In this document: piece after piece, positions 31,679-33,567 of the stretch
Position numbering within the stretch: position 1 is the stretch's first letter
Layout: each line of letters starts with the position of its first letter
DNA from: a virus
Lineage: Duplodnaviria; Heunggongvirae; Uroviricota; Caudoviricetes
Length of the DNA: 64,000 nt
Virus record (IMG/VR): IMGVR_UViG_2859810971_000007
Strand: one strand, 5' to 3'
Made by a program: the position numbers and the translations under genes
The notes under the pieces: generated by a model
Databases searched by the model: none
What the model saw: only the letters and a program-made list of their open reading frames with translations
What the model was told of the DNA's origin: nothing

Positions 31679-31693
31679 GCTTTTTTATACTAA
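31679..31693. other. attL: Lambda attachment core (GCTTTTTTATACTAA) at the attL junction
   Basis: Exact 15-bp lambda core followed by P' arm sequence GTTGGCATTATAAAAAAGCATTGCTTATCAATTTGTTGCAACGAACAGGTCA; host side is ybhC. Confidence 0.85.
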
Positions 31694-31766
31694 GTTGGCA
31701 TTATAAAAAAGCATTGCTTATCAATTTGTTGCAACGAACAGGTCATTATCAGTCAAAATAAAATCA

Positions 31767-32705
31767 TTATTTGATTTCAATTTTGTCCCACTCCCTGCCT
31801 CTGTCATCACGATACTGTGATGCCATGGTGTCCGACTTGTGCCCGAGAAGATGTTGAGCAAACTTATCGCTTATCTGCTTCTCATAGAGTCTTGCAGACA
31901 AACTGCGCAACTCGTGAAAGGTAGGTGGATCCCCTTCGAAGGAAAGACCTGATGCTTTTCGTGCGCGCATAAAATACCTTGATACTGTGCCGGATGAAAG
32001 CGGTTCACGACGAGTAGATGCAATTATGGTTTCTCCGCCAAGAATCTCTTTGCATTTATCAAGTGTTTCCTTCATTGATATCCCGAGAGCATCAACATGC
32101 AATGTTGTAGGGATGGCAATTTTTACGCCTGTTTTGCTTTGCTCGACATAAAGATATCCATCTACGATATCAGACCACTTCATTTCGCATAAATCACCAA
32201 CTCGTTGCCCGGTAACAACAGCCAGTTCCATTGCAAGTCTGAGCCAACATGGTGATGATTCTGCTGCTTGATAAATTTTCAGGTATTCGTCAGCCGTAAG
32301 TCTTGATCTCCTTACCTCTGATTTTGCTGCGCGAGTGGCAGCGACCGGGTTTGTTGTTATATGGCCTTCAGCTATTGCCTCTCGGAATGCATCGCTCAGT
32401 GTTGATCTGATTAACTTGGCTGATGCCGCCTTGCCCTCGTCTATGTATCCATTGAGCATTGCCGCAATTTCTTTTGTGGTGATGTCTTCAAGTGGAGCAT
32501 CAGGCAGCCCCCTCCTTATTGCTTTAATTTTGCTCATGTAATTTATGAGTGTCTTCTGCTTGATTCCTCTGCTGGCGAGGATTTTTTCGTAGCGATCAAG
32601 CCATGAATGTAACGTAACAGAATTATCACTGTTGATTCTCGCTGTCAGAGGCTTGTGTTTGTGTCCTGAAAATAACTCAATGTTGGCCTGTATAGCTTCA
32701 GTGAT
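31767..32705 (-). pseudogene. int: Lambda integrase, N-terminal arm-binding domain replaced by IS600
   Basis: From ITEAIQANIELFSGHKHKPLTARINSDNSV onward near-identical to lambda Int; first 46 codons of the 358-aa ORF (31767..32843) derive from the IS600 end. Confidence 0.85.
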
Positions 32706-32748
32706 TGAGGTGTACTGGCAATAGCGGACACTACCATTTGTTCTTTTT

Positions 32749-33567
32749 TTAAGCAGCTGTCTGATGATATTTTTCCCTGAAGGCTGCCGGGGAGATATTC
32801 CCCAGACGAGAGTGACGACGCTGACGATTGTAGAAAATCTCAATGTATTCCCGTATTACTGAGATGGCTTCATCCCGGTTATTAAAACGATAGTGGCTCA
32901 GGCTCTCATTTTTCAGCGTTCCCCAGAAGCTTTCCATCGGAGCGTTGTCGTAACAGTTACCTTTACGCGACATTGATGTTTTCAGACCAAACTGCTCCTG
33001 TATGACCCGGTAATCGTATGCGCAGTACTGTGAACCTCGATCAGAGTGGTGGATTAGCCCGGCAGGTGGGCGCTGGCTCCTGAGCGCCATAAACAGGGCT
33101 TTACCTGTCAGCTCTTTTGTCATGCGCTCTCCCATGGCGTAGCCGACAATTTCGCACGTATAAACATCTTTGATGCCAGCGAGGTACAACCATCCCTCCT
33201 GTGTGGCAACATACGTCAGGTCCGCCACCCAGACCTGATTTGGTGCTGTAGGAGCGAACGTCTGGTTCAGCAGATTTGGCGCAACTGGCAGATTGTGGTT
33301 CGGGTTCGTAGTCGCTCTGAACTTGCGTTTCTGCTTACAGCGTAGCCTCAGCTCCTTACGAAGACGTGCCAGTCGGTCACGACCAACGATGATGCCATTC
33401 TCTGCCAGCTCCGTCTGGAGCCGCCGGGTTCCATATGTTTCGCGAGTGCGGATATGTGCCACCTTAATCTCCAGTTTTAGCCGCTCATCACTTTGTTTTC
33501 TGTCTGAGGGTTCATGCTGTACCCAGTTGTAATAACCGCTCCTGGATACACCAAATACCTGACACAT
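32749..33567 (-). CDS. IS600 OrfB transposase
   Basis: 272-aa ORF. Confidence 0.9.
   Translation of the reverse strand: MCQVFGVSRSGYYNWVQHEPSDRKQSDERLKLEIKVAHIRTRETYGTRRLQTELAENGIIVGRDRLARLRKELRLRCKQKRKFRATTNPNHNLPVAPNLLNQTFAPTAPNQVWVADLTYVATQEGWLYLAGIKDVYTCEIVGYAMGERMTKELTGKALFMALRSQRPPAGLIHHSDRGSQYCAYDYRVIQEQFGLKTSMSRKGNCYDNAPMESFWGTLKNESLSHYRFNNRDEAISVIREYIEIFYNRQRRHSRLGNISPAAFREKYHQTAA

Follow-up and report, generated by a model that had tools for sequence, protein, structure and literature searches.

Pseudogenes disrupted by IS elements, together with IS-mediated deletions, are typical of Shigella genome reduction. For prophages, the reference is lambda in an E. coli lysogen, whose attL (BOP') adjoins the chromosomal gene ybhC and is followed by int. 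A prophage of the type addressed here (CP-933K type, as named in S. flexneri 301) occupies the same ybhC site in E. coli FDAARGOS_944 in a much more complete form, displaying in order ybhC, int, xis, ant and, further on, exo, bet, gam, kil, cIII, an N fragment, a repressor gene, a cro-like gene, cII, an HTH replication gene, an intact 968-aa toprim CDS, NinB and NinE. As for the integrase itself, residues 1–64 of Int make up the N-domain, which is the arm-binding part of the protein, and the Int fragments C57, C65 and C75 show 0% recombination in vivo, both on attP/attB and on COC'/COC', unless they carry the E174K change (PMC9791396).

The locus described here lies within a 64-kb stretch of DNA, the whole of which is called the window. 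According to the alignments, it very probably corresponds to the left end (attL) of a decayed lambdoid prophage, located at attB-lambda in an S. flexneri-type chromosome and carrying an IS600-truncated int pseudogene at a deletion scar. Its features are as follows.

30349–31632, minus strand: ybhC, bacterial gene flanking attB-lambda on its gal side, 427-aa ORF named by matching E. coli annotations
31679–31693, plus strand: lambda att core of 15 bp (the O of attL, BOP'), exact match
31694–31766, plus strand: attP P' arm, extending to the int stop codon and differing from phage 2B8 only by a C>T change at 31746
31767–32705, minus strand: int remnant, codons 45–356 of a lambda-type Int plus the stop codon (phmmer against PDB, Pfam)
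31767–32843, minus strand: mechanical chimeric ORF of 358 codons with a TTG start, made of 46 IS600-derived codons and int codons 45–356
32706–33969, minus strand: IS600 copy C, full length, 1264 bp (self-BLAST and PGAP-annotated match)
32749–33567, minus strand: orfB of IS600 copy C, 272 aa (ORF list)
33603–33905, minus strand: orfA of IS600 copy C, 100 aa (ORF list)
33970–34180, plus strand: right deletion edge, comprising the 3'-terminal ~100 nt of a phage HTH/replication gene and the spacer that precedes the primase gene
34181–38339, plus strand: toprim primase-helicase gene, frameshifted, with an IS3-family element at 36773–38018

With a lambda lysogen, the window shares the 15-bp core GCTTTTTTATACTAA, the ybhC-adjoining site and the orientation, and the core, P' arm and int sequence together (31679–32707) are 99.2% identical to those of phage 2B8, 99.0% to those of HK97 and 98.6% to those of lambda. 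The core, which is found 46 bases past the ybhC start, is the sole copy in the window, even when two mismatches are allowed. In a three-way alignment, the switch from bacterial to phage DNA takes place exactly at the core, the sequence on its left being the ybhC-side flank of the empty attB of E. coli and that on its right the phage P' arm. E. coli EC28, which has an empty site (ybhJ-ybhC-attB) and reads GTTGAAGCCTGCTTTTTTATACTAACTTGAGCG at attB, agrees with the window up to 31697 only and then diverges. With its core, bacterial left flank and phage right side, this is thus a genuine attL (BOP'), and a lambda-type phage did integrate at the classical attB adjoining ybhC. The original prediction had recognized an exact lambda core and P' arm after ybhC and proposed that a lambda-like phage had integrated at the classical site; both statements hold, as the core is exact and unique, its flanks align accordingly and the alignment with lambda-group attP-int agrees. 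The junction between ybhC, attL and the 3' end of int is a common one, since it occurs in 1,912 of the 5,426 complete E. coli genomes.

The C>T change at 31746, which also sets the window apart from a lambda lysogen, lies inside the P' arm motif AGGTCACTAT, at a base that we take, from the lambda attP map, to belong to arm site P'1. It is absent from phage 2B8 and is shared with the prophage of E. coli FDAARGOS_944, which points to an allele of this prophage type rather than to local decay. On the chromosomal side, IS1 cuts ybhJ (about 27625–28395 and 28396–30208), and neither the 5' end of ybhJ nor ybhI is found anywhere in the window, so that what survives of the ancestral att-lambda neighbourhood is a 5.3-kb stretch bounded by IS1 and IS600. 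Compared with E. coli EC28, ybhJ also seems to be short of about 80 nt near 29740.

According to phmmer searches against the PDB lambda Int chains, residues 47–358 of the chimeric ORF correspond to residues 45–356 of Int. The truncation of the 5' end of int by IS600 had been proposed from the start and stands, but the loss amounts to 44 codons, the remnant beginning at Int residue 45, and not to the 64 or so codons first estimated. Compared with lambda Int (PDB 5j0n chain, residues 45–356), the remnant shows three differences only, H164P, A245T and I248V, at positions that are presumably not those of catalytic residues. The catalytic domain is complete (PF00589 at 1.7e-40) and so is the core-binding domain (about residues 65–169), which matches PF22022 and PF02899 and aligns fully with PDB 2oxo and 1p7d. 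The arm-binding domain (residues 1–64) is incomplete, with residues 45–64 only being left: PF09003 is covered at profile positions 49–74 of 74 with 26 bits, versus 113 bits for the intact Int of 2B8, and PDB 1kjk aligns over residues 43–64 only. In the 1KJK structure, the lost N-terminal two-thirds of this 64-residue domain are presumably the beta-sheet that contacts arm DNA. The native int start codon and the upstream xis/pI region are gone, and IS600 is found instead. Over its 312 codons, the remnant contains no frameshift and no stop, which is uninformative about selection since it is only ~1% diverged from the phage alleles. These features suggest that the int remnant is a pseudogene without a promoter of its own, and the domain alignments support the view that the portion of the arm-binding domain that contacts DNA would be missing from a truncated product.

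Like C57, C65 and C75, the predicted chimeric product would keep the core-binding and catalytic domains and lose a functional arm-binding domain; unlike them, it would retain residues 45–64 and add 46 unrelated N-terminal residues. The window allele has the wild-type E174 and hence no int-h activating change. By analogy with these inactive fragments (PMC9791396), the predicted product, if made, would probably be recombination-dead, and the earlier argument that an Int without its arm-binding domain cannot excise the prophage is sound. As both xis and attR are missing, this inability is moot here.

Copy C of IS600 is 99.5% identical to an element annotated by PGAP as 'IS3-like element IS600 family transposase' and has the TG...CA ends. 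It is one of five IS600 copies carried by the window (A to E: 8230–10800, 21261–22524, 32706–33969, 41457–42720 and 58329–59592), which all share one orientation and show 99.5–99.8% identity by self-BLAST. Copy A is itself split by a 1.3-kb insert at 9313–10616. Only copy D is flanked by a 3-bp target duplication (ACC/ACC). Copy C is flanked by gat and gtc, without a 3-bp duplication, which points to a deletion or recombination scar and is not evidence against its identity as IS600. A split target shared by copies B and C, suggested by the GTC common to the left flank of B (...gatGTC) and the right flank of C (GTCagc...), was rejected: none of the 5,426 E. coli genomes spans the joined 300-bp flanks, the matches begin exactly at GTC, and the shared triplet is regarded as a coincidence. 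The density in IS elements (in 64 kb, five IS600 copies besides IS1 and further members of the IS3 family), the lack of target duplications around most IS600 copies and the interruption of backbone genes, such as that of ybhJ by IS1, are all in line with Shigella genome reduction, nothing being distinctive here in this respect.

The extent of the loss beyond IS600 was estimated by taking the prophage of E. coli FDAARGOS_944 as the reference. The two are collinear over ybhC, attL and int codons 45–356 (98.7–99.4%); at int codon 45, the collinearity at 98.7% stops, and it resumes 12,583 bp later at 99.4%, positions 33970–36772 of the window corresponding to segment 15822–18625 of FDAARGOS_944. 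The intervening segment, 3239–15821, is absent from the window. The resumption point falls within the HTH gene, about 100 nt short of its end, and the similarity continues through the toprim gene and NinB to the NinE region. IS600 thus takes the place of 12.6 kb that include int codons 1–44, xis, exo/bet/gam, N, the repressor gene, cro, cII and most of the replication gene, and with them both native int promoter regions, the entire immunity region and the early-left region. FDAARGOS_944 keeps all these genes as well as tail genes, whereas the window carries another late-gene mosaic after the NinB region; compared with a lambda lysogen, the window likewise lacks int codons 1–44, xis, the pI and pL regions, the immunity region and attR. 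About 1.4 kb of the interval is an ISEc20 specific to FDAARGOS_944, so that about 11 kb of phage DNA has been lost here. IS600 at int codon 44/45 therefore marks the scar of a deletion or rearrangement of ~11–12.6 kb, through which the int remnant is now joined, via IS600, to the primase gene of the prophage. Such a scar could have arisen either by an insertion followed by an adjacent deletion or by recombination between two IS600 copies.

To the right of IS600 lie about 24 kb of lambdoid DNA encoding a primase, NinB, a toxin-antitoxin pair, Ant, a second O/DnaC/DnaB module, Q, lysis proteins, terminase, portal and capsid. The primase-helicase gene, which contains a Hint plus LAGLIDADG intein (Pfam), is damaged by a 1-nt indel that switches its frame near 35650–35700; furthermore, IS600-D interrupts an O-like gene, another IS element interrupts the large terminase gene, and the remnant stops at IS600-E without any tail gene. 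In the second replication module (41034–46363, plus strand), genes for a DnaC-like protein and a DnaB-like helicase accompany the O-like gene that IS600-D splits, and the Q antiterminator gene follows. As this module lies downstream of the primase module, the remnant is a mosaic of at least two lambdoid backbones. A HigB/RelE-like toxin gene paired with an HTH antitoxin gene is found at 39314–40000 (minus strand), where the FDAARGOS_944 prophage has HigA and RelE/ParE; this stretch is not aligned with FDAARGOS_944 by megablast. Far from this region, the first 7867 positions of the window, over 20 kb leftward of attL, carry in inverted orientation (minus strand) lambda-like terminase, portal and capsid genes ~65% identical to those of phage 2B8. 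They include a fragment (3–468) that matches a tail gene of the FDAARGOS_944 prophage at 99% identity. This left-side set may consist of late genes that an IS-mediated rearrangement has moved. At the other end, positions 59593–64000 contain what we take, from their translations, to be two putative Mu-like DNA-binding ORFs, then a 3' fragment of dpiA (citB), dcuC and IS1.

A search for attR, put forward with the original prediction, was run over the 64 kb of the window and found neither a second core nor a P arm; no match to ybhB, bioA, bioB or bioF was found in the window either. The prophage had been described as locked by the defect of its Int. Locked it is, but the lock is overdetermined: with xis, the immunity region and attR all absent from the window, excision would be impossible whatever the state of Int, and the truncation of Int is not its operative cause.

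The 358-codon ORF itself, with its in-frame 46-codon leader provided by IS600, is present as announced, in the sense of a mechanical ORF with a TTG start. This TTG (32843) is located 94 nt inside the 3' end of orfB, in a frame that differs from that of the transposase. No other in-frame start precedes Int residue 101, so that only this TTG could give a protein with the core-binding domain; the next in-frame start, an ATG at 32537, would lead to a 256-aa product. Five nt upstream of the TTG lies a Shine-Dalgarno-like match (GGGA/GGA, 3–4 nt), whose duplex with the anti-Shine-Dalgarno sequence is weak (-4.3 kcal/mol). The predicted peptides of the chimera include those of the leader (FSTIVSVVTLVWGISPR) and of the junction (TNGSVR, YCQYTSITEAIQANIELFSGHK and FSTIVSVVTLVWGISPR). 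Each IS600 copy had been said to carry this outward-reading start; the TTG is indeed found in all five, but the frame remains open and unchanged up to the end of the IS in three only (C, D and E). In copy B, leader codon 29 is an in-frame TGA, and in copy A a 1-nt deletion in the A-run that follows the orfB stop changes the exit frame, so that the leader frame is not conserved even within the window. In the copy sequences, the IS600 tip can be read through without a stop in only one frame out of three. Once the orientation is fixed, an in-phase fusion would be a 1-in-3 event, no more than expected by chance, which suggests that the 358-codon ORF exists only as an accident of an open frame at the right end of IS600 being in phase with int.

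Promoter prediction, another check proposed at the outset, did not reveal any outward promoter-like site at the IS600 end. No outward sigma-70-like site was found in the last 300 bp of IS600 by a consensus or a lax scan, and the consensus scan retained none on the minus strand from the transposase promoter region (~33954) to the end of int. The best lax candidate upstream of the TTG, ATGAGA-17-TTTAAT, is poor, being devoid of the A at position 2 of the -10 element. A hybrid promoter using the TTGCCA hexamer located 10 nt from the IS600 tip was also rejected: by eye, the int flank offers no acceptable -10 element at 16–18 nt, and the transcript would in any case exclude the leader. A literature search on outward transcription from IS600 returned nothing, and an S. 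flexneri expression paper that names CP-933K concerns a tail gene, not int. No intrinsic terminator-like site was detected between orfB and the IS600 end, so that a weak read-through from the transposase promoter is physically possible. As expression would require both read-through from this weak promoter and the use of an internal out-of-frame TTG, that of the chimeric ORF is expected to be negligible.

The locus is already known as an annotated integrase fragment, a known kind of pseudogene. Indeed, a protein identical to the last 256 aa of the chimeric ORF occurs in databases on at least 1000 contigs, under the names 'integrase fragment [Shigella flexneri]' and 'putative integrase encoded by prophage CP-933K; partial [S. 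flexneri 2a 301]'. A gene finder has predicted the 358-aa chimera, unnamed, on 3 contigs, most annotations calling the 256-aa fragment only. The same 43-nt int::IS600 junction is found in S. flexneri SFBU1023, in a 4.4-Mb chromosome labelled E. coli ECMA0423 and in five further assemblies, including LM651928.1; none was found among the complete E. coli genomes. The far side of IS600 shows three different flanks, namely IS1 adjoining pflA in some genomes, DNA with a predicted phage-lysozyme gene in LM651928.1 and, in the window, the primase region. An identical junction with differing far sides is consistent with IS600 having inserted long ago, each lineage then undergoing its own IS-mediated rearrangements. 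Four E. coli genomes carry IS600 near int, but at a distance from the junction that exceeds that of the window by ~0.6–1.3 kb; one of them, H16, keeps an annotated excisionase.

Other explanations of this arrangement can be weighed against these data. A simple insertion of IS600 into int, the rest of the prophage being contiguous and intact beyond the IS, would agree with the full-length 1264-bp element and its two intact ORFs. This reading is refuted, and its probability is practically nil: the gat/gtc flanks show no duplication, the DNA past IS600 is the primase region found 12.6 kb further along in the FDAARGOS_944 prophage, and int codons 1–44 are absent from the window, as phage 2B8 from position 29148 onward (these codons and the neighbouring DNA, where xis lies in HK97 and FDAARGOS_944) has no match there. 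The original prediction went another way and attributed to IS600 an outward start, and possibly a promoter, driving a chimeric leader-Int(45–356) whose inability to bind the arms would lock an otherwise excisable prophage. The 358 open codons, the TTG with its Shine-Dalgarno-like match, the lack of a terminator-like site ahead of the IS600 end and the product called on 3 contigs speak for it; against it stand the absence of xis, of the immunity region and of attR, that of any outward promoter-like site, the leader frame broken in two of the five IS600 copies and the annotation of the sole 256-aa fragment in most genomes. This scenario is thus very unlikely, and the IS600-int fusion is not retained as a gene, given a TTG that is out of frame inside the transposase gene, a weak Shine-Dalgarno match, the lack of a promoter-like site and a stop in the leader of one copy out of five.

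Even less credible is a real 256-aa product still able, for instance, to bind the core or to resolve Holliday junctions. Its ATG at 32537 is the first in-frame ATG and has upstream (32648–32622) a promoter-like pair matching 10 positions out of 12, CTGACA-15-GATAAT. The 15-nt spacer is poor, however, no Shine-Dalgarno match is seen (-1.0 kcal/mol), the product would begin at Int residue 101, inside the core-binding domain, and even C75 is inactive in recombination (PMC9791396). It is more doubtful still that read-through would provide a low level of a membrane-prone leader-Int(45–356) that binds core sites and might act as a dominant-negative or topoisomerase-like factor at attL or attB; if it did, the chimera could for example make it harder for lambda-group phages entering Shigella to integrate or to excise.

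This locus should therefore be recorded not as a fusion gene but as an attL with an int pseudogene truncated by IS600, bordering a prophage remnant that bears a deletion scar and is riddled with IS elements. If the dpiA and dcuC identities are right, the right side of the remnant would abut a remote part of the chromosome instead of ybhB-bio. As the int::IS600 junction is fixed in many S. flexneri genomes and its far side is variable, it may serve as a lineage marker. More largely, the locus provides a worked example of the erosion of Shigella prophages by IS600 and of the way in which ORF finders make chimeric 'genes' at IS ends.
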